NCBI RefSeq assembly: GCF_964355755.1
Contig: NC_092672.1
Coordinates: forward strand, 23,759,237 to 23,823,236
DNA length: 64,000 bases
Source: Antedon mediterranea
Taxonomy: Eukaryota > Animalia > Echinodermata
Reading direction: 5' to 3'
Numbering within the stretch: the first letter of the stretch is position 1; each line of letters opens with the position of its first letter. The notes under the pieces are model-generated. The model was not told the DNA's origin, did not search any database, and worked only from the letters and a program-made list of their open reading frames with translations. This document shows positions 1,563 through 56,249 of the stretch, in pieces. A program made the translations under genes and the position numbers.

Positions 1563-1589
1563 CGTGTATAAAATTTGATTCAGACAAAC

Positions 1590-5012: not shown

Positions 5013-5069
5013 TTTTAAATTTTTGTTTTCAACTACTTATATGAAAATTCAAGTTAAGAACGCAGTATA

Positions 5070-5250: not shown

Positions 5251-5267
5251 ATACTGTTTGTGTTTAC

Positions 5268-27775: not shown

Positions 27776-27855
27776 AATAATACCCTACCCAGGCCTACCT
27801 ACCTAGCCTAGCTAGGCCTAGAGGCTACTCTAGGGTCAGGCTATAGTAGTATATA

Positions 27856-28618
27856 GGGCGCTACTGCAGTTTCGCACCACACCGTTATATCTTTGATTTC
27901 TCACCAAAACTTTCCTTTTTCAAACTCACAACATAATATTATGCAACATGTTTATACGATTCGACCACTTACGAAGTAATTTTTTTTAAATAACAATACT
28001 TTTCAAACATTTTAAACCATACTGAACTCGCTGTCAACACACTGCGAAATGTTCGCCATCTTATTATATTTATCACTTAATTGCCAGAATGTATGCTTCA
28101 TTTTCCCCAAAAAAAATGTACAAACTATAGAAGGCAGTGTTATAAAATACGATTACACAATATATATAGGCTTATTTAGTTTTGAAAGGCAAGAATGTTT
28201 TCAGCTGGCGAAATAGAGGTTAAATTAATATTTCATTTAATATTAGGTCCTAGTATTATTATTCATATTAAAAGGTCCTTATGTACGGACTCATATCGTC
28301 GCCGTTTTGATATGTACAGCTGGTTCGTTATAAAAACCACTCTTTGCAGTTTAAAAATAAAAACAGAAAATAAAACATACATTGATTTCTGCTCTGGCAA
28401 TTTTCTGATTCTAAAATGGCCACAGTTCGATCAAAGTATTCGCGGAAAAAGAGCGGTTTTGAAAGGCATTTTTTATTGTGATAAAGGTAATATAACGGTG
28501 GCTAAATCATGGGAACATGTTACAGAATGGCCCAAAACTGTATGATGTGGGTGTGAGAAAAAAAATTAAGCGAGAAGTCGAAGATATAACAGTGTGGTGC
28601 GAAACTGCAGTGGCGCCG
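27856..28618. mobile_element. TA-flanked MITE (Tc1/mariner-type)
   Basis: TIR GGCGCTACTGCAGTTTCGCACCACAC...GTGTGGTGCGAAACTGCAGTGGCGCC, with TA on both sides. Confidence 0.8.
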
Positions 28619-28810
28619 TATATAGGCCTAGCCTAGCCTAACTGGGGCCTCTATCTAGGCCTAGGCCTAGCTAGATTTATTGCACCTGACCTGCATTATC
28701 CTACATAATTGCCTGTACCTAGCCTAGCTAGTAATTGCATTAATTTAGTAACTTACTTTTTTGCCTACTGGAATGTAATTATTGCTTTTTTCCATCAAAA
28801 TAGTTGTCAT

Positions 28811-29008
28811 TTTGATAGGCGCGCCTCCTCTCACTTCCCCAAAACCAACAGTTCCTTTTTTTTTTTTTTTCAAAAACACCGCCGCGCGCCATTTATAATA
28901 AAGTATCTAATAAAAAAATAAAAAAAAACCACTGTGTACCGCCCTCTCTGTTATGACTCGGTGACCTTAAAATAAACAACAGCTATTTAATTACACATGT
29001 TTTTTGCT
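28811..29008. promoter_or_regulatory. Putative bidirectional promoter between MYO19 (-) and OGFOD2 (+)
   Basis: Divergent start codons ~200 bp apart; GC-rich motifs GGCGCGCC, CGCCGCGCGCCATT and CCGCCCTCT in otherwise AT-rich DNA. Confidence 0.6.
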
Positions 29009-32000
29009 ATGATTTTTGCGATCAATCAATCAACAAGATATGTTTGTAGCTGTTACTACACCCATAACATATTTTTACCTAAGTTTAAACTGCATGTGAC
29101 GTATATAGATGATAAAATATTTGCTGATATTTGGAAACCGGTAAAACCTGTTGCTGCCAAATCTTCTTTGTGCTAGAGGCCTAGCTAGACAGCAGAACCT
29201 GGTCTGGTCCTAGTTAAGTAGAACGGATTAGGCCAAGTTGAGCCGCCGACAAGTTGAGCCGCCGCCAGAAAAACGTTATTTTCTATGGAACGCCAAATGC
29301 TAACTTTCGCCGGTGCTCTTTCAATTTATGTTAGGGATAACCATGATGGAGAAATAAGTTAGTTATTTCTCCATGGGATAACGATGTACATTCAAACGTT
29401 TATATATCATGGTTTTTAGTATATATATTATTAAATATTATAATTAAAGAAATAATTATGAAAATCTGGCTTGTAGATTCCAAAATATAAAACATCACCG
29501 AAAGTGATCGTTTTTAGCCAAAAATGACGTAAACATGTTGCCCCTCACTCAGTCGGCAGTTGTATGAACTACCCTAGGCCTAGGCCTACTCCATTTTTCG
29601 GTAAAATAATTACCGTATATTTCGGTGTATAAGTCGCACTTTTGACACGCAAATTTGACCTCTAAATTAAGGGTGCGTCTTATACACCGAACATAAATGC
29701 CTCACCACACAGATTGTACACGTAGGCCTACATAGGCCTAGGCTATCGTCACCTCGTTTGCTAGGCCTGAGTAGGCTAGGCCTAGCTACAGTAACTAAAC
29801 TAACGTAACGGCAACCTGCTTCTGCCTAGGCCTAGTTTTCAAGTCAATTTAGCATGATGTTATACTAAATATGATGAAAAGATTTTTTCATTATGGCGCT
29901 CCGATAAAATTTCATTTGTAAACGTTTACGTCGTACGATTGGAATAGTATTTATTTATACAGTAGTTATACGCACGATCGCCGTACCCCAAGCGCAAGCC
30001 CTTCTTTTGGTGGCACATGGTGTACGGTATTCGACTAGTATATTCTCCAGGTGATTATAGCCGTATCCGGATATTCACCCCCTGGACATTTACCCCCCGG
30101 AAAACTACCCCCCGGACAACCACCACCTGGACCACTACCCCCTTAGGACAACTACCCCTTTAGGACAACTACCCCCCGGACAAACACCCCCCGGACAACT
30201 ACCCCCTTAGGACAACTACCCCCTTAGGACAACTACCCCCCGGACAATTACCCCCTAGGAACAATTACCCCCCGGACAATTACCCCCCGGACAATTACCC
30301 CCCGGACAATTACCCCCTCCTCCCCGGGTAATTACCCCGCGGACAACTACCTCTGACACAATACTCCCCGTAGGACAACTACTTCCTGGACAATACTCCG
30401 AGGGCAAATAATCTTTTAGGACAACTACCTCCGTAGGACAACTAACCCCTGGACAACATTTCATTTGTTTGTTTTCATTTTACAACCCGGATTATACAAT
30501 ATATTTATATACATGATAAAAAAAAACAATAATAGCTCAGTACCACCAGTAACCCGTATCACTGTAATTCCTTTTTGGTTAATCGTATCAAATTAGAAAT
30601 TATATTATCATAATCTTATTACCCCGCGGACAACTGCCTCTGACACAATACTCCCCGTAGGACAACTACCTCCTGGACCTGGACAATACTCCGAGGGCAA
30701 ATAATCTTTTAGGACAACTACCTCCGTAGGACAACTAACCCCTGGACAACTACCACCCAGAAAACTATCCCTTTAGAACAACTACCCCCCGGACGGACAA
30801 CTAACACCCAGACCATTCAACAACCTGACCTCTGCAACAGCGTATAATAGGAATTAATAACTATATTTTAATTCTTACTTTGACGAATTACTATTCATTA
30901 TTGTAAACAAAAGTAAAAGATTGAACATAAATATAGCCTGGTATAAACTGAAGATTGTCACATGATCATAGGATAGTCGAACGTATTATATAGTACTCCC
31001 TGTATTTACTGTAAAAACTGGGTTCGCTAATAATAATAATAATTTTTGCGTCAGGACAATGCTTCGATAACCACTGGTCTTAAAAGAATTAATTTTTGTC
31101 TCAAATTTGTCATTTGTATTTTTGTACACTTGAAGAATAATATCACTTTTGATATTTGACCTCAATGTTCACTCACCGAATAAACGGCGATCTTTAAATA
31201 AATTTCCCTCAAATAAACGGTGACCATGTCACTCTCATGACACATCATATGGAATAATCGGCGTCTATTTCCATTAGATTATACCCCCTCCCATTGAATA
31301 AACAACTTTCTTCCAATAAATGTCCACCTAAAAACCACCTAAACAATAAACAGCCCAGGCCGTTTTTTTCAATAAATACGGTACTTTAAATCTAGCAAAT
31401 CTAGGGCCTGGCGTGCTGTTAAACAGAATAATCGGTTAAAAACGGGTGTTTCGAAACTAGAGACCCGAGACCAGAGACCATGAGACCCGAGACCCAATAC
31501 GAAAAGGGAGACCTAAATATACGAAAAGGGAGACCCACGTACGAAAAGGGAGACCCCACTATACGAAAAGGGAGACCCCACTATACGAAAAGGGAGACCC
31601 TAATATACGAAAAGGGAGACCTAAATATACGAAAAGGGAGACCAAATATACGAAAAGGGAGACCCAAATATACGAAATGGGAGACCCAAATATACGAAAA
31701 AAGAGACCAGAACGAAAAGGGAGACCCTAATATACGAAAAGGGAGACCCAAATATAGGTCTCCCTTTTCGTATTGGGTCGTGTCAGGTCTCTGGTCTCGG
31801 GTCTCTAGTTTCGAAACACCCGTTAAAAACAGATGATTTCATTTTTACAGAAACCGGTCCTATATATTTGTCTACTTTTAGATTGGGGGGATGGGGGGTA
31901 GTTGACCGGGGGGTAGTTGACCGGGGGGTAGTTGACCGGGGGGTAGTTGTCCTAAGGGGGTAGTTGTCCTAAGGGGGTAGTTGTCCGGGGGGTAGTTGTC

Positions 32001-35000
32001 CGGGGGGTTGTTATCCTAAGGGGGTAGTTGTCCTAAGGGGGTAGTTGTCCGGGGGGTAATTGTCCGGGGGGTAGTTGTCCTAAGGGGGTAGTTGTCCGGG
32101 TGGTAAACATCCGGGGGGTAACTGTCTAGGGGGTAGGTGTCCTAGAACCGATTATAGCATGGACCTAGCGTACACACTTCTCGGATACATAGATACTAAT
32201 CGAATACGATTGTCCGTGAAAACGTGCGCCCTCTCGAAAAGATCGAGCGAGGCTAGCCCACACACGTGCGTGTTACACACACGGTCATGCACTCGATGTT
32301 GCGGCGAAACTCATGAATAACAAGTTAGAAAGAACTTGTTGAGGCTGGGCGCGGCCGAGCCTCCTAGGTAAGAAAAAACCTAAATAAAGGACGCCGTTGT
32401 AGATATAACAAAATATATTATTACAATAATATTGATTACAATTTAAAAAAACATTGTTTTGATGAAATATAAGGTGCGTCTTATACATCGACGATATAAA
32501 AAATACCGATATTTTACTCTCAGTTGGGGGTGCGTCTTATACACAGGTGCGACTTATACACCGAAATATACGGTACATAAAATCACGCTTTTTAGTAAAA
32601 TATTTTGTGTATTAACATTTTAAAATTCAATAAAATATGATATTAAAAGATTAGTAAATAAAAAATAATATTTATTTAACCTCATTCGAAAAGTGTTAAT
32701 ACTCTATTAATTAGTACGTGGTAGGCCTACACGCGAGAAAAATTATGAGTGCACTGAATTTTTTCCTCGAAAGATTAAAAACAATTAAATATTACTACTT
32801 TCCTTTGCTGTGTTAATTGTGATAGGCCTATGTAATTATATATTATTTATTTTCATGACACAATAAACCAAGACCATGAACTTATGTACTAGGACACCAT
32901 CCTAATCACTATGCGAAATGTCGTAAAAGACGCATGCACTGGGCGTTTCATAGAAATCACCGGCGGCTCAACTTGTCGGCGGCCCAACCGGTCATATCCC
33001 AGTAGAACTAGTAGGCCTAGGCCTGTCTAAACTAACCCTACCCTAGACCTAGGCCTTTATTTTGGAAATTAGATTTTTTCCGCTGTAGTCATTCTGAAAA
33101 CTTTACATATATGAATTTATGATATAGGCCTTAGTCTAGGGTATGCAGTATTTTTATAATTTACATGCACAGGTCAAAATTAACAAATTATGCATTATGA
33201 TGGTACAGTACGGTAGTACTGTAGTTTCCATAATAGCCTGGGTGCAGAACAATTATTATACACATTTGCGGGAAAAAAGTATAGGAAAATTTTTTTTTTG
33301 TTTTTCTAATAGAGTATACCATATAGAATGTCAGAAAAAAAATCCCCATTCCAGGGTCTTGGGGAAAATTTTTTATGGCACTTTTAAATTTTGGCCTATA
33401 TAACACACACAAATTCCTATTAACATACACAAATACCTATATATAGGGGATAGGGAAAATCAATTAACAGTTTTTGTTACTTGCAGTTGTGTTTTAATGA
33501 TTAAAATTAGTAGAGGCTTACTTTAATAACTACTTCTCATAGTAGTTGATGAATCAAGTCGATACGATGACATCATCATGCCAGAATCCAATATGGCGTC
33601 CGATTTGGCGGGAAAAACAGGGTATTGCTAAACCCCCGCAAACCCCTGGAAACCTCCAAAAAAACATAGAAAACCCCACCGAACCGACATAAAAGTGATT
33701 GAATCATGGAGTGTACACCACACTGGGTATGTCCATGTAAAAAAAAATTAAAATTTCTACTGTTAACTACTTATTTTTGGGATAAAACGTCATTTTTTGG
33801 TTAAAAATTAGCAATCATTTTTTACCAGAAAATGATGTTTTACCCCAAAAATAAGTAGTTAACAGTAGAAATTTTATTTTTTTAAAACATGGATATACCC
33901 AGTGGGTCGTACAATACATGATTCAATCACTTTTATTATGTTGGTTCGGTGGGGTTTGCTATGTTTTTTTGGAGGTTTGCAGGGTTTAGCAATCATTTTT
34001 GACCAAAAAATGATGTTTTGCCCCAAAAATAAGTAGTTAACAGTAGAAATTTAATTTTTTTTTTTTCATGGATATACCCAGTGGGTCGTACACTACATGA
34101 TTCAATCACTTTTATGTTGGTTCGGTGGGGGTTTGCTATGTTATTTTGGAGGTTTCCAGGGGTTTGCGGGGGTTCAGCAATACCCTGTTTTTTCCGCCAA
34201 ATTGGACGCCATATTGGATTCTGGCATGATGATGTCATTGTTATGGACTCGATTTATCAACTACTATGAGAAGTAGTTATTAAAGTAAGCCTCAGCTAAT
34301 TTTAATAATCGTAACACAACTCCAAGTTAAAAAAAACGTGAATTGGTTTTCCCTATCCCCTATATATAGGTATTTGTGTGTGTTAATAGGCATTTGTGTG
34401 TGTTATATAGGCCAAAATTTAAAAGTGCCGTAAAAAATTTTCCCCAAGACCCTGGGATGGGGATTTTTTTTCTGACATTCTATATGGTATACTCTATCAG
34501 AAAAAAAAGAAAAAAATTTTCCTATACTTTTTTCCCGCAAAATTTGTACTGCACCCAGGCTATAAGTGCTCCGTTTAAGCACTGAGTGAGTACATAATTA
34601 TATGGTATGTAATTTAAATGTGAATGGGAAATAGAGAGAAACAAGCTTCAAATTGGAGCTACTGTATAGTACATATAATATTAATAATAAAATGTGAATT
34701 GTTTGTGTATTATTTTGTAGATTATTAAAAACAAAGGGTGTGACAATGAAGAAGGATTCACAGACGTTCTGAGAGTCGTAAGTAATTGATGTTTTAATTT
34801 ATGTAATTATGTTAAGTTATCTGGCTGATAATGGTACAAGTAGCAAAATACAGTTCATATGTGTGTTGTAGCAGAATACGGTACCTGTGTATCAGAATAC
34901 GGTACATGTGTAGCAGAATACGGTACCTGTGTATCAGAATACGGTACATGTGTAGCAGGATACGGTACCTGTCTAGCAGACAATTTTCCTTTTTTGTCAA

Positions 35001-36105
35001 TAAACTCTTCTAGGAATAAAACAAAATTTGGCTCATGCAGACAATTTTCCTCATAGTGGGACATTCAAATGCAAAACTATATTTTCTTTATTTTATTTCA
35101 TACCATTAAACACAATGTTATCTCACTAACAATTCATTTCAGGTTAAAACAGAAGTAGAACGTAGAAAATCACTTGGCCGAGATTATTTAAAGAGAAAAG
35201 AGACAATTTTAAAATATTACACACCACTCAATCAAGAGATATACAAACTACAGGTATGGAATTAAGTAGTTAAAAAAATGAAATAAATATTTTACCTGTT
35301 AACTACACCTTGCTGATGGAATACAACTATGAATGCATGTCTGATTTTGTAAAGACCAACTATTACAACAAATGTTTAGCTTGACTACTACAACTGACAA
35401 GGACAACTTCCCCTTTAGTTATATGTTTAGTTAAATATCTTGACTAAAAATATTTGAAATAGTTGGAAAGTTTTACTTCTTTATGGTATTATATTTTCTC
35501 GTTGAGATTGTTATAGATTTCATTTCTGAGCCTAAAATTTCTGAAGTTGGTTGAACATAGCAAGCAGAAAAATGCATCAATGCAAAGTTTGATAAAACTC
35601 ATGAGTACTGAAAAAGGTTTGTTGATAGTTGACCTATTGTAATCAAATTCTATAAAAAATTAGTAAAGGAGTCTAACTTAAATAACTGTACATTGTGAAG
35701 CTCATTCTGCCATGGAACAGTAATCGAAAAAGATAAAAATCAAAGCTATACACTAGTAAGAGCAAGCTTTCCTATATGATTAAAACTATTTGACGAAAAG
35801 GCATATTTCAAACACATTAAAGGAAAAGTTAAGCACACAAAAAATGGCAAAATTACATGTTTTTGCATTGTTATTTTGTGAACAATGGATGTTCTATAAC
35901 TCAAAATGGCATTCAAAAACTTGCATATTTACTGTAATTACGTTTTATGTTTCACATTTAACTGTTTTTTTTTTATGTAGGAGAGCGTATTTACTCTTTT
36001 CCAATATTTACTGAAGAGTTTTGTAATTCATTTAAAGAAGAAATAGAACATTTTGAAAACACAGATTTACCAAAAGGAAGACCAAATACAATGAACAATT
36101 ATGGT
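29009..36105 (+). CDS. OGFOD2: OGFOD2-like gene, exons 1-5 only (175 aa; catalytic 2OG-Fe(II) domain absent from window)
   Basis: Exons 29009-29140 (YVCSCYYTHNIFLPKFKLHV), 34721-34777, 35143-35253 (EVERRKSLG), 35517-35616, 35981-36105 (RIYSFPIFTEEFC...EEIEHFENTDLPKGRPNTMNNYG). Phases consistent, no stops. PKGRPNTMNNYG is an OGFOD2 signature. An alternative in-frame ATG lies at 28997. Confidence 0.9.
30062..32149. mobile_element. Mutator-like foldback element with (GGACAACTACCCCC)n arrays (layer 3)
   Basis: Inverted arrays at ~30068-30320 and ~31893-32143; 9-bp TSD GATTATAGC at 30053-30061 and 32150-32158. Confidence 0.88.
31444..31821. mobile_element. Mutator-like MITE with internal ~22-bp array (layer 4)
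   Basis: TIR GGGTGTTTCGAAACTAGAGACCCGAGACCAGAGACC; 9-bp TSD GTTAAAAAC at 31435-31443 and 31822-31830; internal (ATATACGAAAAGGGAGACCC)n. Confidence 0.92.
33234..34562. mobile_element. Foldback MITE with ~580-bp inverted arms, TAGCC ends (Academ-like)
   Basis: TAGCCTGGGTGCAG...CTGCACCCAGGCTA; arms ~33234-33820 vs ~33990-34562; TAA on both flanks (3-bp TSD candidate). Confidence 0.8.
34866..34980. repeat. 21-bp tandem repeat, 5-6 copies
   Basis: Unit GTAGCAGAATACGGTACCTGT / GTATCAGAATACGGTACATGT. Confidence 0.9.
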
Positions 36106-36755
36106 GTAAGTGTGGCTACCGTAAATGCCCTGCTTTGCATAAACTAATCAAAAACCCCACCTCAAATATTAACTCCCCTACCCCATTAACATCATTTGGT
36201 ATAAATGCCCCTCATAAACATTAGTAGGGTAGGAAGGAGGGGTTACCGTGCACCCCCATGATGTATTTTTTTAATGTACATTTTTGTAATCCTGAATATA
36301 TATAATTAACATTTTTTGATGTTCCCAAGACGAAATATTGTCCCATGGGGTCTTTTGGGGGCCATTTTGGTGGCCATCTTGGATTTATCAAAATCATAAA
36401 TATAGACGGTACTTGACAAAGACTGATCATAGAGGTCTGATTTTGGTCTTAAATTGTTCAGAATATGCACATTTCTATGTACTATAATGAAAAGTTTTCG
36501 TTCAAAATGGCCATAAATGCCACTTTTGACCTTTGACCTTGTTTTTACATAAGGGTCATATCTTGGTAACCCCTGGTCATAAAGATTTTATTTTTATCTT
36601 AAATTGTTCAGAATATCCATATTTATATTAGCTTTAATGAAACATATTTTTGAAATTTGACAGGAAATATCATTTTTTACCTTTGACATTATTGCATAAC
36701 GATTTTCTCAATAATTAATAATAATAATAATAATTTTTGTATTTTGTGACAATTG

Positions 36756-37107
36756 TAACAAAAGGTGTGTACACACTATAACAAAAGGTATGTACACACT
36801 ATAACAAAAGGTGTGTACACACTATAACAAAAGGTGTGTTCACACTATAACAAAAGGTGTGTACACACTATAACAAAAGGTGTGTACACACTATAACAAA
36901 AGGTGTGTACACACTATAACAAAAGGTGTGTACACACTATAACAAAAGGTGTGTACACACTATAACAAAAGGTGTGTACACACTATAACAAAAGGTGTGT
37001 ACACACTATAACAAAGGTGTGTACACACTATAACAAAAGGTGTGTACACACTATGACAAAAGGTGTGTACACACTATAACAAAAGGTGTGTACACACTAT
37101 AACAAAA
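36756..37107. repeat. 23-bp minisatellite, about 15 copies, each containing the palindrome GTGTGTACACAC
   Basis: Unit AACAAAAGGTGTGTACACACTAT, head-to-tail with no spacers. Confidence 0.95.
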
Positions 37108-37542
37108 TGGCATGTTTTTTTGTTTAGTAATGTATGAAATATTTATTTTAGATGCCCCACGGTACAGAGGGTTACTTGTAAATTTAAAAATTGGTGAACA
37201 TATGAAAAATTGACATAATTCGTTTTTGCTTTAGCCTACATTCTAGGCTCCCCGACGAGGGGGTTAGATTGTAGTAATTTAAAGCAAAAAAATAGTAAAA
37301 TTGGCTGCTAGTCAGTGGGTTTTTGCTTGAATGTAACCATTTATTTTGTCATTTTATAAGTGACCAATTTATTTATTTTTTCATTTTTTTTTTTCATCTT
37401 TCATGTTTTTTTGTGGGACAATACATCTTTAATGAAATTGTTGTTAATATAAAAGTTGCTTTCAAAAGACATCAGACCTCCCAACTCTCTCCCTAAAATA
37501 CAATTTATTTTGGATTAACCAACAAAATATCCAAAGTTGTTA

Positions 37543-38302
37543 AAAACAAGGCCAACAGCCATTAAGTCGCGTGTTACAATGCATAGTGATACCGGACCGA
37601 CAGACAAACAGACCGACAGACAGACAGACGGACCGACCGACATAGTGAACTATACTGACCGAAATTACTGAACATGTTTAAAAATGTTGAAATGTTTAAA
37701 AACATTTATATTTTTTTAATTTACACGTGCGTAGCCTGTCACTTTTGACGTGCTCGTATAACGTAATTTCGAGTTGAAAAGTAAGTCAAGAAAACAGAAA
37801 TCGGGCAAAAAGAGTGCGCAATAACATTTAACGCGCAGTGCGCGCGCAAAAATCTGCGCACTCATGGCAATTTTGTAAACGCTTAAAATTGCCTGAAACG
37901 TACTCTTATTTTATCGAAAATAAATTGTGAAAATTTTAGGCGCGCGTACGCATGCGTTACATGCGCTACGCACGTAATTGTATTGCCATATGATGATTTA
38001 TGCCCTGAAATTTATGAGTACCAAATTTTATTTAATTGTGATTCATGGTTGTTAAGATATGATTACAAACGTGATTTCGTTAAATCGTGCGTAGACCGCG
38101 TAATTTTTTATTGCGCACCGTGAAATCATAACCACATCGATTCCTGGCCATAAGGAATATTCTGTGAAAAATTGATTTAGCTAGATTAAACTGATATCAA
38201 GATAAGGTCATAAAGCGATAAAACGCATAGTGATACCGGACCGACAGACAGACCGACCGACCGACATAGTGAACTATAGAGTCGCTTCCACGCGACTAAA
38301 AA
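37543..38302. mobile_element. Helentron-associated (HINE/DINE-1-like) non-autonomous element
   Basis: Subterminal inverted AGTCGCGTG / CACGCGACT, terminal hairpin AGTCGCTTCCACGCGACT, (GACA/GACC)n microsatellites in two copies of a core repeat, A-tract flanks. Confidence 0.65.
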
Positions 38303-38646
38303 TGTTACTACTCTAGAAATAAACTGAACGTAAGATATTCATGGATTGTTTAATAAGTGAAGTAATAAGTTTGCCATGTTTACTATTATAAATAATAAGT
38401 GTTCTTGGATTGGATGTATTTTTTTTGTAAGTAAATATTATAGCACCCCTCTATAGTGTGGACATGCTTTTATAAAATCTTCCAATATTTCTAAGTTGGG
38501 AAGTCCAAAACTTCCGTATAATGGTTATCTTCTAAATTATATTAATAATTAGAGCATAGCATTTCATATTTGTATAGAAGCCTTTACCAGTGACATTGCT
38601 TTAAATCTTAATTACTTTACAGATTCACATTTTTATTTCTTGCCAG

Positions 38647-41600
38647 GAAAAGTCACGCCCAAGTAAGAGAGACAGAAAGTACAAAGGAATAACATTTCCT
38701 GGTATAAATTGGGGGAAAAAAAATTTTCGTCAAAAGGTAAGTTTTTCTCTAATCAGTTTATTGAGTTTGGTGATTTACAAATTGATTTAGAAATAAATAT
38801 TCATGTACATTTTGATAAACTAAATGTATGTTTTTTAGTTCAAAACTACCACAAACAGCAAAACCACCACAAATAGTGGTAAGTTCATTTTATTTTTCTA
38901 ACAGCTATACAATGTCAAGTTAACTCAGTTCATCTAATAGATAAATTATGATTTTCTTATACTTTATTTTGTATTTAATCAAATTTTAGAGGTGAATACT
39001 GAAACACCTGCAAAAGCTAAAGATGTGAGTACTACAATATAGCATTTGTTGACTGTTCTATTTAAATCTACTCTACCTCCTCAAAAAGAATAATCCATCT
39101 TTCTTTCAACTCACAAATTCATTACTTGTATACTGTTTAAAATGAGGAATTAAATCTATTATACTTTTAACATTATAGCCCTGGCGAAAGAACAGTGTTT
39201 AACTTTTCCTTATTCTATTAAGATCCAGCCAATGATAACCATTGACAGTAATTTGCCTTCGAATTTATATACTTACTTTTAACATGGTATATAACATTAC
39301 ACTGATATGAATGGTTCAGAAAGTAAAACATTTACCTCTATGTTATTTATATAATATTTGTTATTTTTATTTCTTGTGCATCAGGTTAGCAAGAAATCAA
39401 CTGCAGAAGGTAAGTGTGTAATTAACTTAAATTCTTAATACGTTAATTGTGCAAGTATAAAATAATGGAACATGCTGAGTGAATAATAATAGAATTAGTG
39501 AATGATAAAAATGATGATTCACAAATAATAATAATAAAGTTGATAAAATTAACAGTGAAAGTGTTTACTACAATGAATCAAGATAGCCTTTCTACCCAAA
39601 GAAGAGCCATTTAATAACTTTTTACATCTTTTCTTGTTATTTTAGGTTTAATTAGTTTTATCTTTTAAACATTTTAATTGTAGAAAAAGTGATTTACTGA
39701 AATATTGTTGCTACAGTATATAAGTGCATTATAAATTTATTTTTTATCTTATATAAATATCATGTGTAATATTTTACTGAAATGAGAAAGAGGTAGATCA
39801 CTATTATTCAAATTGTCATTTAAGTGCAATAATGTTAAAAACAAAAACCAAAAATTAGGGTGAGACCACGAAACACAACCAAAAAAATGAACGTAAAGAT
39901 ATAATGATAAAGATAATGACAACAGAAAATTACCACAGAGAAGATGTCATTGATAATAGTAAGATTTAGACAAATTATAATAGTTGTAGAGATGATAATG
40001 ATGATATATTCAATGTCTATTATCTTTTTACATATATTTAGTCTATTTGATTTGTAAACAATATTTTTTACACATTTTTCCCGTTGATTAATAAAGGAAC
40101 TGAAGATGCATCATTGAATGTTCAACAATCGTTGGATAAATATATTATTCAGGAAATTTTTTCAAAACAAGAAGTAAAACAGTCTCCTTTGGAAACTTTT
40201 AACATTTGGGATCACGGGGGACAGTTAATCTATCAAGGAATACATCAGGTAAGTTTTGGACATTTTGTATGTTTGTATGGTCTATTGTTTGTGTATTAAC
40301 AGTTTTAATGCCTAATTATGGCAGTATCTTATCTGTATCACATGGATAGGATTCTGCTGTGTGTAGATAGGTGGGAACATGCCCACTGTAAAGATTGTTG
40401 TTTAGGCCTTCCACCTATCTTAATGTTAACAGATTACCCAACAAACCTCTGTGTATCTCTTCACACACCCAATCTATAAGTTTTGCAAGCTATCCATAGA
40501 CTTCTCTCACTACATGTGAAGTGAATTTGAAGAGCTTTTTCTCTATTTAGAACTCTTAACTATTTATAAAGTTTACTTTTCTTTATTCTAATATATTTGT
40601 ATTCTATTCACATTATTTCTATATTGCTGTTTTAAGAGATAAGTATTTCTTTGATGATATGCGCTCTATATGTTCTGGATATATTTATTGATTTTAGAAA
40701 ACACTGCATTCTATTACATCAGTAGGCTTTACTATCCTTGTCAAATAGTTTATAAATAATTGTTTTTATTTTGTATGCAGATCTTTGTGACATCAGAGGC
40801 AGTTTATGTTGCTGTCTTTGATTTGAGTAAAGACCTCGATGATCCTGCATTAGTAATAGATCCCAATGGGGTAAGTATTTCAGGGGTATTAGATTAGATT
40901 AGATGTTGTTGACAATCTCATTCATTGGTTAAAAGTAAAATGCTTTCATTGCATTGCAATGTAGCTGTGTCAAAGAATGTCATACTTAGTTTTATATATA
41001 TATATTATAGACTAGTGCTGTTCCACCGTACCACGCCAAGAATGTTAAAGAGTCGCTATCCAATCAAGTTTGAACAATACCATGAAAGCCCCAGTGGTCT
41101 AATGGTTAAAGCAGAAGGTTCCGGGTTCGAGTCTCGGTTGGGAAGATTTTTTCTCATTCTCGCAGATTTCCTCATCTTATCATTTCAAATTAATTAATTC
41201 AATTTCAGTATATCACCGGGTGGTTTAGAATTTATTCTGTGCCTGTAATGTTTATATGTATATATGTATATAATAACATAAAGTTGAAATTATACGATTT
41301 TTATTTGGTACTAAAATAATATACAATTTCTTATAGATTTTTATTATTTGAAATTAAATTATTTTTTACAGCAAGAACGTGAACATCATTGGACAAATCG
41401 TCAGTTTTTACTGTCTTCGATCCTGTCAGTTTATTCCCATAGTCGTATATTGGGAGAGAATAATGAGAAGGAAGTAAATTTACCTGCTATCCTTGTTGTT
41501 GGCACACACAAGGCAAGTCTGGGAGATACAGAAGAAGAACAAAATAAAGAGGTTAGTAATAATCTAGAATAGGTTTGTGTTTACAGTTAATACAAAGCTT

Positions 41601-44600
41601 AAAATATTTGTCTTGGGCACATGTACCACAGTGGGTATAGTACATTGAAACTGTAGGACTAATAATCAATCAATTTACACAGCTTTAAATCCACCAAATG
41701 TAATTTAGCTTTTTGTGCAAATTAAGTTGACATGACATAAAACAAGTGATTGTCAAATTTGAAATATATAAAGAATATACTTGATCAAAATAAAACATAG
41801 AAGAGGACATTTGGACTTTATTAATATTACTACATGTTAGCATTTTAAGGTTTTAAAATAAACTTTTGGAAAGAAAAATTAACAATTCTTTTTGTATGTT
41901 TAAATACGGTGCTGTTTTTATTGTCTTTTGTTTGTATATTATGTAGTAGTGTTTAATTTTTTTAAATCCAGGCAGAGGTGGTTTTACAGAAAGTTAAAGA
42001 TTCCCTGAAAGGAAAACCATATGAAAAACATGTACTTGGATACTATGCTGTTGAAAACAGTAGAGAGACTACAGACAAGAGCTTTAGTGATCTGAAAGAA
42101 GTAATTCAAGATCTTATGAACCATTTAAAACGGTCTATTCCATTAAAGTGGATGCGTTTTAGATGTGAAATGTATAATCTGAGGAAGGACAAATTGATAT
42201 GTTCTGCAGAAGAGGTATTTTATTATAATTTTTTTTTTTAGGGAAAGCAAAACTTGTTCAATAATAAATATTGTGAAGGCCAATCACCTTTCTTTAACAA
42301 CACATTCAAGACTGTCTGCTCTTGAAAACAAATCACCAGATTCAATTCTATTATACTTGTACTTGGTGATGTTTAAATTTCACCTTAACTATCCGGGCTA
42401 TGTTCAATACATTAATAAACCAACTAACTCCCGTACCACTTTAGGTGCCTCGAATCATAACACAATATGTATGTTGCCAAAATACAGGCAATACTTTAAT
42501 AATAAATTAAATACCGCTCCTGAACAAGAGATGCAATCAACACATTACGCGGCTGTTTTTAATGTACTGACTGGTCAGTGTTCTATGACAACACTGACAT
42601 AAATGCTAGTGTGACTGTCATCAATGAATACATCAAGCAATGCATCAGCAACATGATCCCAATTAAACATAAGAAGTCATACTTACACTATTGCTAACAA
42701 TATTTTAATGCCTTAGCGTAAAACAGCGTGCCTTTACTAACAACGTCTACAGTCTCGTGAAACAAAAAGAAATTAGAAATTCAAAAACTGTGATAGCCAA
42801 GCAGCATGTAAAGCAATGCAAACCATAACTGGTTTTAACTGTAAACAAAAAAAAGGATATAAATGGTAATACAAACTAAACTTGTAAATGACCTCAATGA
42901 ATTCTATTGTAAATTTGACAAATATGACTTTAGTGATTGTATTAATGCAAAAGTTAAGTTACTAGAAAACAAAGTTAAACTATTAGATCATGAATCTTAC
43001 ATGTTGCATGTTGATGAACACTTAGTTAAGCAGGTTTTAGGTGTTAAATCTAAATAAAATCTATGGGCCCTGATGGTATTAGTAATAAAGTCCTGAATTG
43101 CTGTAGCCACCAATTGTCGGCAGTTTTTACTAAACTATATCAATGCACTATAGACTCTGGATTGATCCAAAATATTTGGAAAAATTCTCTAATTTCTTCT
43201 TTGCCAAAAGCTAAAAATAAACCTCCTACTTACCTCAATGATTACCGTCCCATCGCGTTAACATCAAATCCCATGAAATGTCTAGAACGAATCATACTAA
43301 GAGCACTGGGAAAGTCAAAAGATGTTACCGCAAATAATATTAATCAGTTTGCATATAAACCAAACATAGGTGTAGATGATGCTGTGATCCTATACAATAC
43401 ACCTAGACAAACCAAGATCCTATATCAGGTTGACCTTTATTGACTTTTCCAGTGCCTTTAACCATACTTTAACTGTATTCAACACCACCTACTCATTGAT
43501 AACATGTATAAATTAAATGTCAATAATAACATTTTGCTTTGTCTTAAGTTACTTCAGAGAGAGACCACATTATGTTAAAATTAGTGATACACAATCTGAA
43601 TTACGCAAAGTTAGCATGGGCGCACCACAAGGCTCAGGCCTTCTTTTATGCTTATTCAAACCGGACGTAGACTTAGAGTACCGCTTAGAATACGAACCTC
43701 AAAATACCGATTATCATTCGTCCCACAATGCATTTTTGAGTATAATGACACAAGATAATAATTATAATCAATCTTACACAGAATTTATAACATTTAATTT
43801 TTTAACACGAATGTGTTTACTGAGTATTTTTTTTTACTTTTTAAAGTTATTCTAAATGTTTTATGCTGTTTTTTGCCTTGAGGAAGACAAATTTCAAATT
43901 ATATATTTTTTGACAATAAAGTTATCTTGGATCTTGAATATGCATTGGCTTATAACTTTTAATTCAGGTTTAGATTTATTATTCATTCATTCAATTCATG
44001 TAAGACTTTCCTTGCTCAAACATAAATTAAAAGTAAATATAAATATAACAGAAATAAACAATATACTTATTCAAAGAGTTTTAAACTATATTCATTTCAA
44101 CTGGCATATATGCATGAATAGAGTAAGAGATGAATAGCATTCAATAACAATTGTATTCATTTCAAAATTGACACTTGTCTGACAAACTTAGTATGCAGAG
44201 GGTGAACATGTTTAAAACATAATTGATTTTGATACACTGTCAATAGAAATCAGTTATTCGGAAATGCTTTTAGAAATTTACTTCTCACTTCAAGTATGGC
44301 ATGCACAATAGAATATTCGCAACATTTCCTAATACAAAATTCGAGCCAGATGCGGCTTGTGGTATGTATTGTATTTTGACGTTGAGTGTGGAGAAAGTTA
44401 TTTTGAAGAAACACATACCAATTGTGTGGGGTACAACACTTTTATATTTATTTAAATTTTTTTTTAATGCATTTTTTGTTGATTTTAGGTTAAAGAAATG
44501 GCCAGACAAAACGGAATTGGTGATGAAAGCCAACAGTTAATTATGCTTAACTTTCTGTACGACCTTGGTGACATCATCTACTTGCCTGATAATGAATTAT

Positions 44601-47600
44601 TACGGAATCAAGTGGTGTTGGACCCAATGAGTCTTGTTCAGTTTGTTACAGCATTTGTGACAGTGGTTACGCCTGATGAGTTTAAAGTAAGTGGGCTTAT
44701 ATAATGAACATAAATGCTCATTCATTTTCTTTATAAATAAACAGAAAAAAAAATTATAAATTGTATTTTATTGGTTAATTTAGTTATACTTGGATCCACA
44801 ATTCCCATGTTGATTTGTGTACAAATAATAATCTGTAAATCGTCTTTCTCTAATGTTTAAATATGATGTGGCTGTGTTCAATATCTTTCACACAGAGCAA
44901 TCTCTCCCAGAAATAAATTGTTCAGCTCTACTTGAAAGAGCTTTTACTGTGAATTTCCTTGCCATCTCTAATTATGTCACTACTCATGTTAGAAAAGGGC
45001 TTTAGTTATTACAAATTTAAATATTAGCTGGAACTAGAGATTGCTTGGTGTTTTACTATAAAATCTGACATTTTATTCATTGTATTAATTCACTACTGTT
45101 CACAGGAGCATTGGTGTAGCTATCAATCACTGCAAATTGTATAGGAGTTATTTAAAAGACCAACATGTCTTCATCATAGGTCTACTCTTTTACTTTAAAC
45201 ATTTCATTTTATAATTTGATGTGTTATTTTAGAAACCTCGGTACCTTGAAGCTTTTAGAAACCTTAACAAAGGCATACTGGATGAGATGTTGTTAAAGAA
45301 ATTGTGGAAGAAGCATGATATTGATGATGAGAAATTCCAATTCCTTGTAGACCTGATGATTCGATTTGGTTTCATTTGTGAGAGAAAAGCCTCCACCAGT
45401 CAAGCCAGCATGGAAAGTACATCTATAGTAGGTTTTTTTCTTAACCTTTTAACACTTTATACATTCCATTGCCAATTTGGTTTTGTGACACCTTTAAGTT
45501 GGATAAGATTCTTTTTTACTGAAAGGGAACTTCGTATTGACCTTGTTTTTTGTACGAAATTAAAGCTAAGTAATAATAATACCGAATAGATTGCAAACAT
45601 GTTTACACTGGTTGATATAAAGTTTGCGGTACACCACATATATAAAGTTCTGAAAAGAACTGTTGAGTTTCTCGACGTTTCGATCAATATACTTTGATCG
45701 TCCACAAGAGTTTATATTTGGTGTACTGCAATCTTTATATCAACATATTGATTTCAGCATGAAAACCTTCACACAATATGTCATCCGTTACATTACTATT
45801 ACAATTTTAATAGATCCATTAAAAGCCAAACTAGGAAGTCCTTTGTTGTAATTAGCATTCATTATGTATAATTCAAATGTTCGACGATAACTCTATACTG
45901 TATTTGGTTTTCCGCACTTGGTTGTTATTGTGCAAACTACATCAACTGGAGCGGTTGTGTTTCACTCGACCTCTCTAGGCATGAAATCTCTCTGCACAAT
46001 CTAGAGTATATAGTCCGGGAATTTTGAACGAGTCCAGCCGACACAGTATAGGCACAAGGGCACTCCTTGGGTCTAGTACAAGCGTTTTTCAACGTAGCAA
46101 TTTTAAAGCAACTTAACAAGTATTTTTATATCATGTTGTTTGTATAGCTGTCTGTATATTGATGATATTTTATATTTATGCTATTTCAAGCTGAAATTTT
46201 GTATGGATTGTAACCGTATCGTGTTTCTATATGAGCCGTTTTGCTTGATTATGTACCAACAGAGCTTGGATACTATTTTTATACAATCATTGGATTGATT
46301 TTTCGTTTTCGACTTGGATGTTCTGATTAAACATTTTACGGTATTGACTCAAGGTCACTTTGTTCTGTAAAATGGAAATGGCTTTCATTGGATTTGTTAT
46401 GTACCCTTTACATAAAGGGTAGATATGTATTCATATACAAATTTTGTCTATCTGATGTGATGGCATCATCATATGGCCAGTTGAATTAAAAAAAGTTGGA
46501 TTTTCATCTGTTTCGTAAATGCTTGTTGCGTTGAAAAGAAAGCGCATCTTACTTTTACGTGTCCAAAATTCTTCAAATTTGTATTAATGTAATTTTTTAG
46601 ATAATTATCTTCTAAAATAGTTATCTTTATATGTCAATTTGATGACGTCATCGTGTTAAAAATTGAATTAAAAGATGGGTACACTGTAATATGCTGTATG
46701 ATACAAAATAGGTACAATTCAGCACTGTAAACATATTTAATTCATGTTATAGGATGGCATAATAATTGTCAATGCTCATATATTTTAACGTATGTGCATG
46801 TTGCATTTTCGCGGATAACCCAATCTTGTCACTTTGACGAGTTCAAATCTAGTTTTTGTTTTGAATTTTAACATTGGCCTATTAACCGTATTTTATCATT
46901 GACCTATAGCATTTGTGCAATTTGATATAATATTTTTCTTGTATTGTTTTCTTAATTATTCCAAGCAAAATGAATTTCCGTTTTAAGTGGACCAATAAAA
47001 TGTCTTGAATATGAATCTTTACACTGAATAATTTTTTAAAAAGTTTTATTTGATTAGAATTAGGAGAGATCTTCACACATTCTAACACATTTAAACATTC
47101 TTATTGCAGGAACGATCCTTTTTTGTGCCTCTGCGACTTGCTTTTGAGACGTCACCATCCAGTGAAGTGAAATCTGTGCATGATGGGCACTATTCTATCA
47201 GTATATATTACGACCTTTGTGGACATCTGCCTGACATACTGTTTCCATATTTAGTGATTGATTTCATTAAAAAATATCAGAAGGAGACAGGAGATGACCC
47301 CAAACTATCAAATGACTATGCAGAGCTCTACGTCGACCAATATCATAATGTTATCTTGTCTCTTGTCAAATTGGTAACAAAGCAAGATGACCACAAGTTC
47401 TTGTTAAAGGTAACTTACAATGTCTAAATGACTTCAGTATTTTTTTTCTGTTCCATTGAAATATGTGATAATATAGTTATTTTATGCAAATAATAAAATG
47501 CAGTTAAATGTTTCTATTATGCAATTGGTTAAAGCATATACATCAATTTTAGAATAAACACCACACTAATTCGCAACATAACCTATTATATTTGCATAGA

Positions 47601-50600
47601 TAAAATGTTTAGGCCAAAACTTTCAATGTAACCTTCAAATGTTTATCTTCAGGCTACAATTAAAGTTAGAAAGGCTCTTGGCGAAACAATTACTACCACA
47701 GAATGTGAACCTTCTCCTTCAACATGTAAACAGGTATGTTATGACTTTTTTCTTTCTTTTTTAATACTAAATACGATAAATTAATTTTAACAGGTTATTT
47801 CCACAATTAGTCACATGATTGGTTCTAGCATAATAGCATAATAATTGCTACACTTGCTATAACAGGAAATAGGCAACAAAGAATGTACCTTTAAAATCTT
47901 GCTGAGTTTAAACTTTACGACTGACCTAACCAGCTGAAGCCCCATTCAGCGAATTGTAACGTATGGCCTCTCCACATTCCCGGATATGGCACTCTCATAA
48001 ATATTTTTTGGGAGTGTGTAATGTTAAATTAACTGAAATGAGAATATTTTAGGAATAATGGACATGTTATGGCCTAAATCGTACTCATTAAAAATATTCC
48101 AGCTTGTCGGCATAAAATTGATATTTTTTATAAACCTGCTCCCACCTCAGTGGCACCATGGTTAGGGCTGAGGTGTGTGAATTTTTTAGGAATCTGGAAA
48201 TCTAAATATCTTGAAATGGTAATCTCACAGAACGTGTTTGGGGAGTGTACAACATTTTTTGTTAACCTACATCTCTCCACCTCAGCCCCAATCAAGATTA
48301 CATTTTCAAATTTGACCCATGGAAAAATTTAAGGCAAGGGGGACTTCAATTCCTCCAACTCTAAATGCCCTCTGTATTTTCAAATTTTAATCTTGATTAT
48401 TATTTGTTTGTGCATTATCCCTTTTTAAAAATAAATGTTAAAATGATGAATAAGCTAGATAATGAAAAAAAAGATTAGTTGAAGATGTTTTGTATTTTTA
48501 CAGGTTGTATCAACTATTGAGATGTCTTTTAAACATTCTAAAGATGGTGGTAGAAGGGGCATTAAATTCCATCGATGCATTCCCTGTGATTGTAGTAAGA
48601 CATCTGAGAAGAAACATATGCAAATTCTTGGAGATTTCCAGGATGAGATGTTGCCATGTCATGGAAGTAACATGAATGTTAAACGATACAAGCAGCTATT
48701 TGGAAGTAAGTTAAGCCAAGATTGTATTATAGATTTTGTTATTCACCAATTACCATAAGGAAAATATTTTTATATTTATAACCTGAGTGTATCTTTGCCA
48801 TTTCATTATTGTAAAACATGTTGTTCAGTATTTAGTACTATAACAAACCTGAGTATATCCTTACTATCTGACCACTAATTTTACCGACTTTCTGAGCATT
48901 TTACTTAGTCCTAAACGCTTGAAATTTGTTACATACTGTTAAGAATATTTGTATAAATCTTATAAAATTAAGACCAGAAGTGCCATTTCAGACCTTTAAA
49001 TTGACGCTACACATTTCTTTAAATGACTGTATTAACATTGGTTCCAAAATCGTAGCTTTATAGTCTTCACTTTTGTGTAAGTAACTTGTTCACAATAAAA
49101 ATATTTCTATATGTACTGTATAACTAGGATGGCCCAGTGTATCTATAAATATGACAATCTTTTTAGTGATGCCTGCTCAAAATGTATTGAAATGTAGTGA
49201 AATTCTTGATTATAACTAATATAAATATTTCTTCTGCATAGATACAGGAACATCAAATGTAGATAGACCAACTGCCGCAGCTCTGGTTACAAGCAAATTG
49301 TCAGGTTAGTTGATTGGTAACATTATATAGGATTAACAGAGTACAGTGTTAACAGCTACAGTAATGTAGGAAATACCAGCATTTGCAGAAATGCTATAAA
49401 CTAATGTAGAAAATATAAATACTGTATACCAGTTTATAAATGTAAATAAATGTCTTAAAACTAAATAGACCATTTTGCAATTTTAATAAAGTTATTCACT
49501 TCTGTGAAATTCCATTTTTTCAGGTAAATAATTTTTTTTTCAATCCAGTTTTTGTCCAAAAGTGAATAACTATTACGTGACATTAAAATGGTATATTCAA
49601 CAAAAAATGTGAAAACAATTTTTTTTTAGGGGGACAATATATCTTTAACATAACATACATATTGAAAAAGAAAATTAAAATTTATAAATGACAATAAAAT
49701 ATAAAAATATGAAAACATATGAAGGGGCAGTACTGTAAGCGAATAGCTTTAAACGCACAGCCCATGTAATAGTAAAAACAATATTACTGATTCTCATTCT
49801 CAATCAATATATGAACGATAAAAAGTTATGAAAAAGAAGTAATAATTATCGCAATCAGCATACAAAACCTGATGCAAAAAAAAAACTTAGTGTATTTAAG
49901 ATTGATGGTTGATAACTAAAACAATGAAACACATTATAGATGATAAAAGAGTTAATTATTCTCGCAGCTTAGAGTAGTAAATGGTGGTACATCCGTAATT
50001 AAATATTATTATTTGAATTAATGATTATACAGTACAAACAAATGTTTCCTTAGAGTAGTAGCCGCTGAATTACAATGCGTATAACTTTGATGCGCAAAAC
50101 AAATCAGACTAAAAATTCAACATTTTTATCAATACTGTGTTCATGTACTGTACATGTAATAAGGATTATGGAAGAATTATATATTACTCCATGTAGATTA
50201 ACACTTGTTTAACTGTAGGACTTTCATTTCAAAAGCTTACTTGGATTGGATAGACAAAAATTGAAAACTAACATAGGGACAAAATTATAAGGCGGGTAAC
50301 ATTTTATATCAATTACGTAATATACTGATCAATAAACTGGAAATCATCAGACTTTTAAAAATTAAATCAACTACAGGTGGTCCAACATTGACAATCCCGA
50401 ATACGATGATACAATGGGACTTTTAGGTATAGTCTCCAGTTTGTAAACTGATGTAAGCACTACAAAATTAAAATTAAAACAATGTTTCATTAATATTTAG
50501 TTACATCCGCCAAAAAGGTATATGTAGTCGATTGCGTGCGTGTGTCTTTTTGTTTGTTAGCAGGATTACTCAAAAAGTTATTGCAAGATCTTTACCAACA

Positions 50601-53600: not shown

Positions 53601-55305
53601 AACCCAGGGCCAGAGAATGAAATGGAAAAGAATAAGGGCCAGTATTTTTTAAGATAAAAAGCTAATAATTAATATTTGAGGTTTCTCACTAATTAACAGT
53701 GATTTCCTCCAAATTATTTACATGTTGCAGTTTATAGATGTATTGTCCCTTTGTCAAATTCCAAAAAAATAAAAATAAAAAGATTTTGAAAAAAAGTGGG
53801 TCATTTTGAAGTATCATAATAGTTATTAACTTTCACCAAAAATTTGTTGAAAAAAAAATCATTTAACTGAAATACAGACGTTTTTTGGTTCAAAAAATAA
53901 CTTTGACTTCCAGTAAAAGTTTTCGATCAAAACATATCTTATAATGCAATGCGCTTATTTGGCTACTCTGTATGCATAACCATAAAACTTCCTCGCGATC
54001 TGTGTGAAATCACCTTCTCAATCCTAATTAGCATCATGAATAATGTATACTCATGGTTTAAAATCTTTGTTTACTTTTGCTCACGACTATTTTCCAGACG
54101 AAATGTAATCAAATTAATTTAGCTGATAATTACATAAAATTGTTGTTTTTGGCTCGAATTTTCGACTTAAAGTGAATAACTTTAATATTACTTTGATATG
54201 GCCAATAAAAATTTAGTATATTTTGATTTTAATTTTTTTGTGTTTCAAGGGACAATACATCTTTAAAGTAATAACATTACACTGTCCATCAATTTATTAT
54301 TAACCACTATGATCTTTTATAAAGAATAACTATTCATTTGAAGTTAATTAGATTTTTACAAATTGTTGCATGATGTAGGTGAATTAATTGTCCATCACAA
54401 ATATACCTTCAGTGTATCATTTTGTCATGTCTTTGTATTTTGGGTATGAATTCTCTATAAAATCGCATTTCAGTAATTTTAATTTTGTTGCTCAGTCAGA
54501 GTGTAGTCAGATAGTATACAAAAATGAGTTGAAAGATTAATTTATTCATTCAAGTTCACCTTTTGGTTGTTTTATTATCTATATTAATTGCTGTACTAGC
54601 TTTATTTTAATCATTTTTCAGTCATCCTGTTGTTTGGTAGTATAAAAGAATGTTCAAAATGTTGCTGCTGAACTTATTTCCAATCTGTTACATCAGCCTT
54701 CTTTTATTGTGCGTTTTAAGTCCATGAAAAAAGATTTAGTAACATAAATTTAAACTTTTGTTTTTATTTTAGGTGAAATATCTGAAGATAACTATCGGGA
54801 ACTGCTTAGCAAAGTGTCATCGTGGTTCAAAGAATCAGAAAAAGTCAACCTATTGAAAGTTATACTTTGCAAGTGTGAACATATTTCTGTTGTAGAAATA
54901 GAAAGAAGGAATGATCCATTTGAGCTGTTTAAGTTACTTGAAGGTCCTGGAATCATTAGCCAATCAAATATCGATGTTCTCATTGAAATCATTGCAATAG
55001 GAAGGATGGAGGGTGTGTACGAAAGCATCAAGCAGTTGATACCAACCTTTGCTGGATTTGAGAAATTAATCATCTCTGAACGCTGGAATGATGTACGAAA
55101 GGTCATCAGATTTGGTCTTAATATAAGTAACGCAGATAAAGTAAAAATTGGACAGTTGCGTGGCCTGAAGGTTAAGGAATCGGATGATGTTTGGATTTTA
55201 ATATTTAAGTTAGTAATGAAAGATACTTTCACTAAAAAGAGCACAGAATTCGTTCGACTACTTAAGGACAATGACATGGATATCCTTGCTACATTATTGG
55301 AATAG
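38647..55305 (+). CDS. ROCO-family protein 3' portion (808 aa): partial Roc GTPase (G3, degenerate G4), COR, and two C-terminal death-effector-domain-like repeats; no P-loop exon found
   Basis: Phase-consistent, stop-free GT-AG exons 38647-38736, 38839-38878, 38990-39024, 39385-39409, 40097-40248 (IWDHGGQLIYQGIHQ), 40781-40870 (AVYVAVFDLSK), 41372-41551 (ILVVGTHK), 41972-42214 (IPLKW), 44489-44686 (LNFLYDLGDIIYL...VVLDP), 45233-45427, 47110-47409 (FFVPLRL), 47653-47733, 48504-48705, 49242-49304, 54773-55305 (YRELLSKVS...ELFKLLEGPGIISQSNIDVLIEI). Confidence 0.85.
41085..41150 (+). mobile_element. Decayed tRNA-derived head (SINE-like)
   Basis: A-box TGGTCTAATGG and B-box GGTTCGAGTCTC with the anticodon arm missing. 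Confidence 0.45.
42350..43920 (+). mobile_element. Decayed non-LTR retrotransposon (Rex1/Babar-like RT fragments) in a ROCO intron
   Basis: GPDGIS...LNDYRPIALTSNPMKCLERII...QFAYKPNIGVDDAV, frameshifted FIDFSSAFN, then GAPQGS; many stops. Confidence 0.85.
45905..46856. mobile_element. Non-autonomous Helentron-like element
   Basis: 5' TTTCCGCACTTGG and 3' CGGATAACC...GACGAGTTCAAATCTAGTTTT, shared with the element at 50670-51908. Confidence 0.55.
50670..53180. mobile_element. Same Helentron-like family: full unit 50670-51908 followed by partial tandem copies
   Basis: 5' TTATCCGCACTTGGCGGATAA (twice), 3' CGGATAACC...GACGAGTTCAAATCTAGTTTT; internal block repeated at ~50820, ~51940 and ~52380. 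Confidence 0.6.
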
Positions 55306-55720
55306 ATAGAATACAAGATAACAATACATAACATGTGACAACATAACACTGAATTAACATTCTACTACTTAAGGACAATGACATGGATATCCTTGCTACA
55401 TTATTGGAATAGATAAAATACAAGATAACAATACATAACATGTGACAACATAACACTGAATTAACATTCTACTACTTAAAGACAATGACATGGATAGCCT
55501 TGCTACATTATTGGAATAGATAATACAAGATAACAATACATAACATGTGACAACATAACACTGAATTAACATTCTACTACATAAAGACAATGACATGGAT
55601 AGCCTTTCTACATTATTGGAATAGATAAAATACAAGATAGCAATACATAACATGTGACAACATAACACTGAATTAACATTCTACTACTTAAAGACAATGA
55701 CATGGATAGCCTTTCTATGT
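55257..55720 (+). repeat. ~107-bp tandem repeat (~4.5 copies) made of the last codons, stop and start of the 3'UTR of the ROCO gene
   Basis: Unit begins CTACTTAAGGACAATGACATGGAT (LLKDNDMDILATLLE*). Confidence 0.93.
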
Positions 55721-56249
55721 TTTGAAATAGATACAATTTAAATGTGACAACATAACTATTAGAATCGGAATTAGCACTCTATATCATAGTAATTTAAAGA
55801 GAAACCTGATTTAAAAGGTGACTAAAATTGAATAACAGTTCAGTTGGATTTTTTTTTAATATACTAATTACAACCAATCAAAATCTGAATTTGATTGTAA
55901 AGAACCTGTAAAGTTTTATTAAATACAGTCAACTCATCCAAAACCATACCTTTAATGTCCCATTTTTTACCATTATTCAGAAAACCAGACATATTAGCTC
56001 AGCCCAAGGCTGTCCTGTTTTGGAGAGTTGACTGTATTATTAAATTATTTATCGGTTATTGTAATAATTTTTCAAACACAAGACAAATATTTAATCTTGG
56101 AAAAATTCATACAGTAGATTCAGATTTAAAATTTCTTGATGGCCGATACAACTTCTCTGTCCTTAAGGAGTATACAGACAGCTGAAGTTTAAAGATGAAA
56201 TGTAGCTTACTGTCACAAGTCTAACCTTTTTTTGCAAACCATATCTCTC

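Follow-up and report, generated by a model that had tools for sequence, protein, structure and literature searches.

An in-frame OGFOD2-ROCO join in the feather star Antedon mediterranea suggests a young chimera lacking the P-loop

Genomic DNA of Antedon mediterranea carries a real, in-frame join between the 5' part of an OGFOD2 gene and the 3' part of a ROCO gene. In the window, that is, the whole stretch of 64,000 nucleotides that was analysed, the chimera can be rebuilt from the sequence as 20 exons at 29009-55305, with a frame of 2952 nt that encodes 983 aa, is free of internal stops and is interrupted by introns of the GT-AG type only (19/19). Exon 5 ends at 36105 with the consensus donor GGT/GTAAGT, and exon 6 begins at 38647 behind a pyrimidine-rich acceptor; as both joined ends are in phase 0, the frame remained open. 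The rebuilt boundaries bear out the original prediction, which had described 20 open exons, a product of about 983 aa and phase-0 ends at these two positions. The proteins closest to the model come from A. mediterranea itself (92-100% identity), and an identical one was not found among the retrieved proteins, so that the window probably represents a further copy or haplotype, or else a sister species. We moderately favour the explanation that unequal crossing-over among clustered duplicates of OGFOD2 and ROCO genes generated the chimera recently, as a near-neutral by-product.

The 5' half is contributed by OGFOD2 and comprises exons 1-5 on the + strand (29039-29140, 34721-34777, 35143-35253, 35517-35616 and 35981-36105), which end before the catalytic half of the enzyme. 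Compared with intact OGFOD2 (P0016 and P0043-P0046; P0017 in Anneissia), the chimera shares 162-164 of 165 residues over model residues 11-175 (PF25238), whereas the native first nine residues are replaced and everything past parent residue 174 is gone, including the HxD (parent residues 232-234) and the distal His, so that neither the HxD...H ligands of the iron nor the catalytic barrel remains. When P0016 was used as a tblastn query, five exons only were recovered, and across the whole window residues 176-348 gave no match with an E value under 5, in line with the predicted absence of the catalytic exons. Similarity begins at 29039, and the ten preceding codons (29009-29038, + strand), which hold an in-frame ATG at 29009 and are preceded by another at 28997, are unrelated to the native OGFOD2 start that is common to 5/5 full-length A. 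mediterranea models and resembled by that of Anneissia. Because the match starts only at 29039, these codons are unrelated and the RefSeq fused model P0003 omits exon 1, the ATG at 29009 is, as judged from sequence, not the native start. The claim that an OGFOD2 N-terminus heads the fusion thus holds for its five exons, with the native start replaced. Seven OGFOD2-like proteins, which to judge from their isoform labels represent about five loci, are located on one contig of 38,962,182 bp, and two of them have no N-terminus. Contigs of both other samples compared with the window skip a 3.8-kb insertion in intron 1 (29225-33017), and similar skips are seen at 33230-34561, 37545-38297 and 42790-44106.

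The ROCO half begins with exons 6-9 (38647-38736, 38839-38878, 38990-39024 and 39385-39409, + strand), a low-complexity insert that in P-loop-bearing paralogues lies between G2 and G3. Exons 10-13 (40097-42214, +) encode the second half of Roc, with WDHGG at residue 276 and GTHKA at residue 363, together with the start of COR-A, and exons 14-18 (44489-48705, +) encode COR-A, recognised by Pfam on exons 14 and 15, and probably the remaining COR, as suggested by the paralogues. In P0003, whose Roc half shares 96-99% identity with that of the window, both Roc and COR-A exceed the Pfam cut-offs, and the ROCO family profile matches bacterial Roco and LRRK2 chains. On these sequence grounds, the chimera is predicted to carry Roc and then COR in tandem, the former being partial. 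The predicted fold of P0003 (mean pLDDT 42.6) is too poor for use.

Roc G1, the P-loop, and G2 are absent from the chimera model. No P-loop exon was found in the window with five P-loop-bearing ROCO paralogues as queries, and motif scan, exon scan and tblastn revealed no missed one in 36106-38646; the sole GxxxxGK[TS] in the six frames, at 60756, is out of frame inside a Gypsy element. The original prediction, which had noted the lack of a P-loop exon, is supported in this respect. It had also taken the departure of G4 (THKA) as a sign of dead nucleotide binding, and this argument fails: the G3 and G4 motifs are as in the P-loop-bearing relatives, with GTHKA the same as in P0007, and G4 is THKA or THKG in 14/14 paralogues that reach it, including all six with a P-loop. 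The G4 sequence was consequently rejected as a lesion, being the normal state of the family and coexisting with intact P-loops. If spliced, the product would be expected to bind no GTP and to oxidise no substrate. In the topology of the G-domain, the sheet loses its central strand together with G1, and for this reason the half Roc fold that is left in the predicted product is probably unstable.

The C-terminal tail is encoded by exon 19 (49242-49304), a linker, and exon 20 (54773-55305; both + strand), which contains one DED-like domain and, after it, another helical unit that is not assigned to a family. The original prediction had proposed tandem DEDs. The first DED is supported at a sub-cut-off level: its Pfam match (E 5.8e-5) scores 23.7 bits under a cut-off of 35.9, its top Atlas matches are DED clusters (0.92 and 0.90) with recognition below the Atlas threshold, and the Foldseek matches include DED and PYD entries (E 2-5.5, target TM reaching 0.71) interspersed with globins. 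The second DED was not detected: no Pfam stretch covers it, and the halves align with a probability of 0.1%; the unit is helical in the prediction, with pLDDT <50 for residues 116-176. A PDB sequence search with the last exon gave 0 matches. A tandem repeat with a 107-bp unit holds the stop codon in its first copy, and the window ends 8.7 kb past this codon.

A second fused copy is represented by P0003 (XP_071943911.1), an 'uncharacterized protein' of 937 aa in the A. mediterranea RefSeq set with OGFOD2-like, Roc and COR-A domains. It is like the window in that the join of OGFOD2 exon 5 to ROCO is identical and the P-loop is absent, but unlike it in omitting exon 1, in its COR end and in its DED-type tail, which is different and closer to P0010. 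The two agree at 273/275 residues over exons 2-11 and at 199/207 over exons 12-14, and thereafter at only 241/425 aligned. From exon 15 onward the window follows P0001 and P0002 instead, agreeing with P0002 at 186/191 residues over exons 15-17 and with P0001 at 404/415 residues of the 3' part to the C-terminal end. Trees place the window with P0003 over exons 10-13 (91/88) and with P0001/P0002 over exons 15-17 (100/99), after exclusion of rows with <70% coverage (P0001 and P0011 from the former; P0007, P0011 and P0015 from the latter). The sequences thus indicate that there are two forms of the chimera, which differ in their COR ends and DED tails. P0003 was the only OGFOD2-headed long protein (1/26 matches) in a word-based search that is weak for absence.

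The ROCO relatives of the chimera are diverse. Antedon paralogues include Death-Roc-COR (P0007), kinase-Roc-COR-Death (P0004) and Roc-COR-DED-like proteins (P0008, P0010 and P0013), which share with the chimera the WDHGG and GTHK[AG] motifs, COR-A and death-fold tails; unlike it, 6/15 carry the P-loop GQExxGKT, which the other 9/15 do not, and none has an OGFOD2 head. P0007, with a Death domain, Roc, a partial COR and an intact P-loop, has at residue 201 the EKSRP sequence that is also seen at the join, matches the Roc half of the window at 216/252 residues, and marks the ROCO donor type. The close ROCO models (P0001, P0002, P0003 and P0007) all lie on the same 38,962,182-bp contig as the OGFOD2-like proteins, so that the parents which the original prediction had proposed to look for by tBLASTn, intact OGFOD2 models and P-loop-bearing ROCO, share one contig.

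Head to head with the chimera, at 15120-26360 on the - strand, lies a decayed, 3'-truncated copy of MYO19 (tblastn 15102-23705, with further-upstream exons placed by eye). Its lesions are a pair of frameshifts, one stop near 17254 and an exon-eating deletion that takes out about 18 codons, and past residue about 500 no match was found; the description of a head-to-head MYO19 with several lesions was therefore accurate. Decay of MYO19 beside an open chimera provides modest support for retention of the latter. At the MYO19 lesion rate, the probability of zero lesions in 2952 nt would be 0.001-0.006, assuming equal time without selection, and 0.29-0.40 for the linked OGFOD2 part alone. The MYO19 copy differs from its nearest protein at 17/376 residues and the OGFOD2 part from intact proteins at 1 or 3/165 (Fisher p 0.018 or 0.14), and the MYO19 copy may also have died earlier. 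In 1000 trials of simulated neutral drift, the share in which the whole frame stayed open was 10-33% when divergence was set to 0.5%, 1-10% for 1% and <1% for 2%; the case for or against selection draws on this simulation and on protein-level counts. As the fused copies differ at only 2/275 residues near the join, the low (0.5%) end is plausible, and the chimera is likely to be young. Youth, reflected in near-identity to the parents, would largely account for the open frame, which is thus weak evidence of selection; sequence evidence for selection on the chimera appears real but modest. CpG is undepleted at 26001-30000, which fits a candidate promoter region and is no sign of activity.

The likely breakpoint zone is located at 36222-37203 and consists of a dispersed repeat from 36222, a 23-bp minisatellite (36756-37107) and a second repeat, in keeping with the earlier description of the gap between exons 5 and 6 as filled with repeats. 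Contigs assembled from other samples (five runs from two samples and two studies, four runs per comparison; contigs, not reads) were compared with the window. In all four runs of one comparison, OGFOD2-type DNA represented by exon 5/intron 5 contigs stops at 36221; past this point, a branch in X2, X3 and X4 continues with sequence unmatched in the window, while an X1 contig carries the window's own link from intron 5 to the repeat (36192-36269). Further links are provided by an X3 contig from the repeat to the minisatellite (36679-36785) and by X2 and X4 contigs that start at 37334 or 37408, end at 38617 or 38691 and lack a 753-bp insertion. The crossover would accordingly have occurred between 36222 and about 37200. 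An additional X1 contig, at 35979-36108, has ends that fit spliced intact OGFOD2, and it provides no evidence against the fused splice, given that contigs lose rare forms.

These data bear directly on the suggestion that the join is an assembly error, or that the OGFOD2 exons from 6 onward are located outside the window and the ROCO part is nested in an OGFOD2 intron. The breakpoint zone is repetitive, no contig spans the whole 36105-38647 gap among the matches listed, and only 8.7 kb of the window follow the stop codon, all of which would suit this suggestion. Against it stand the non-identical RefSeq model XP_071943911.1, which has the same join, and the other-sample contigs that carry 36192-36269 (X1), 36679-36785 (X3) and 37334-38691 (X2 and X4). 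Because P0003 shares the join and part of the links is present in contigs, an assembly error is unlikely, and the suggestion as a whole is highly improbable.

The favoured explanation of a near-neutral by-product would begin with a repeat-mediated unequal crossover in 36222-about 37200 by which intron 5 of OGFOD2 was linked to the intron that precedes the EKSRP exon of ROCO. The differing COR ends and DED tails of the two known copies would stem from a later crossover near exons 12-15, and the COR and DED portions are likely passengers that are not selected. The duplication or deletion junction invoked by the original prediction is supported by the P0003 copy, by models of the parental types that are intact, and by the fact that OGFOD2 DNA stops at a repeat, at 36221. 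Fragmentary copies are frequent (9/15 ROCO without P-loop, 2/7 OGFOD2 without N-terminus, MYO19 broken) and were counted for this explanation, as were the replaced native start and the RefSeq fused model without exon 1. Counted against it were the >900 open codons in both copies and the survival of <=10% at 1-2% neutral divergence. The same open frame, present in two copies with different tails, is what speaks for an expressed and selected chimera, a GTP-insensitive ROCO that would pair through COR with intact paralogues or recruit FADD/caspase-8-type partners through the DED and would thereby serve immunity or cell death as a decoy or a constitutive scaffold, a role that the original prediction had placed under a housekeeping bidirectional promoter. 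The decay of neighbouring MYO19, the undepleted CpG at 26001-30000 and the 25-40-nt micro-exons that the RefSeq model includes after the join, from which transcript support may be surmised, point the same way, as do the COR-mediated dimers described for ROCO proteins in excerpts of PMC4104024. However, the native start is lost, the G4 argument fails, near-identity to the parents leaves selection little time to show, and the central G-domain strand is removed with G1; such a role is improbable, though by no means negligible. Alternatively, the adjacent halves may be scarcely co-spliced, leaving a startless 5' OGFOD2 fragment and a promoterless ROCO fragment. The non-native start, the repeat insertions in intron 1 and in the junction intron, the two AATAAA motifs in intron 5 (37919 and 38318) and the often fragmentary RefSeq models of the ROCO family are consistent with this possibility, but the join has a consensus donor and an acceptor and was made identically by an independent annotation pipeline (RefSeq), and we regard such separation as distinctly unlikely.

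In the excerpts available, expanded ROCO families that show shuffled domains, death-fold modules and pseudogenes have been described from Trichoplax, from sea anemones and from brown algae (PMC4104024, PMC5094078, PMC11378527). Trichoplax ROC-COR proteins with CARD or death domains, actiniarian NG1/NG3 and Ectocarpus ROCOs resemble the Antedon case in their lineage-specific expansion and shuffling, and an immune role has been proposed for them. As far as these excerpts extend, those expansions shuffle LRR, TIR, death-fold or kinase modules, and no case is described in which part of a housekeeping enzyme stands in for the P-loop half, as in the Antedon chimera. In population surveys of Drosophila, according to an excerpt of PMC4069613, about 10% of gene-capturing tandem duplications yield chimeras, many of them single variants, which like that of Antedon combine the 5' part of one gene with the 3' part of another in parallel orientation, with the help of repeats; unlike those, as the excerpt describes them, the Antedon chimera recombined again with a paralogue and has two alternative tails. 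Titles among the literature matches listed include no OGFOD2-ROCO fusion.

As a near-neutral chimera, the locus would offer a clear view of how domains are shuffled within the ROCO expansion of crinoids, which has received little study, with one join and two death-fold tails. If a fused mRNA and selection were to hold true, it would be a natural P-loop-less ROCO for studying nucleotide-free COR dimerisation, with a bearing on LRRK2 and DAPK1. A more speculative and rather unlikely idea is that feather stars possess a cluster that shuffles its genes in the manner of NLRs, where Roc-COR cores without a P-loop and with exchangeable DED tails are driven by the 5' end of a broadly expressed OGFOD2; nucleotide-insensitive ROCO decoys would then tune intact paralogues via COR pairing and couple them to DED-based death signalling. 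One version of the chimera is already present in RefSeq as an unnamed protein.

The contig from sequencing run X1 that covers 35979-36108, at exon 5 of the predicted OGFOD2-ROCO gene, has 2 nt in common with exon 4 and 3 nt beyond the exon 5 donor. These ends fit a spliced, intact OGFOD2, and run X1 may therefore contain mRNA-derived sequence. In intron 13 of the predicted gene lies a decayed reverse-transcriptase fragment (42790-44106), presumably LINE-like, which is skipped by contigs of S2, one of the two other samples. At the 3' end, a 107-bp tandem repeat of 4.6 copies occupies 55253-55737, and its first unit comprises the final codons and the stop. The A. mediterranea ROCO paralogue models compared with this gene (P0004-P0015) are spread over at least four large contigs and carry kinase, Death or DED-like modules in variable order.

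Tandem arrays within the decayed MYO19 copy consist of amplified exon ends, with 15 copies of 79 bp at 24360-25551, six of 95 bp at 23250-23846 and four of 81 bp at 19938-20256. Two exon-like stretches on the minus strand within this copy, 16030-16240 and 20855-20995, showed no match to MYO19.

The point where the MYO19 exons end is adjoined by a region of nested inverted repeats (1-14137), in which the outer arms (1-2645 and 11493-14137) are 100% identical and the inner arms (2640-4107 and 9146-10613) 99.6% identical, with a hairpin at 4103-6736. This region could be a viral element or a large mobile element; alternatively, it could reflect a fold-back error in the assembly. A Pfam search with its 291-codon open stretch (189-1061, plus a mirror copy) returned no convincing match, and a Bcl-2-like stretch at 9532-10008 gave a weak match (E 0.01).

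Near the other end of the window, an LTR element at 59184-63612, whose two ends bear matching short repeats, contains an open frame of 1314 codons (59410-63351); we take it to be Gypsy-type, the family being named from motifs.
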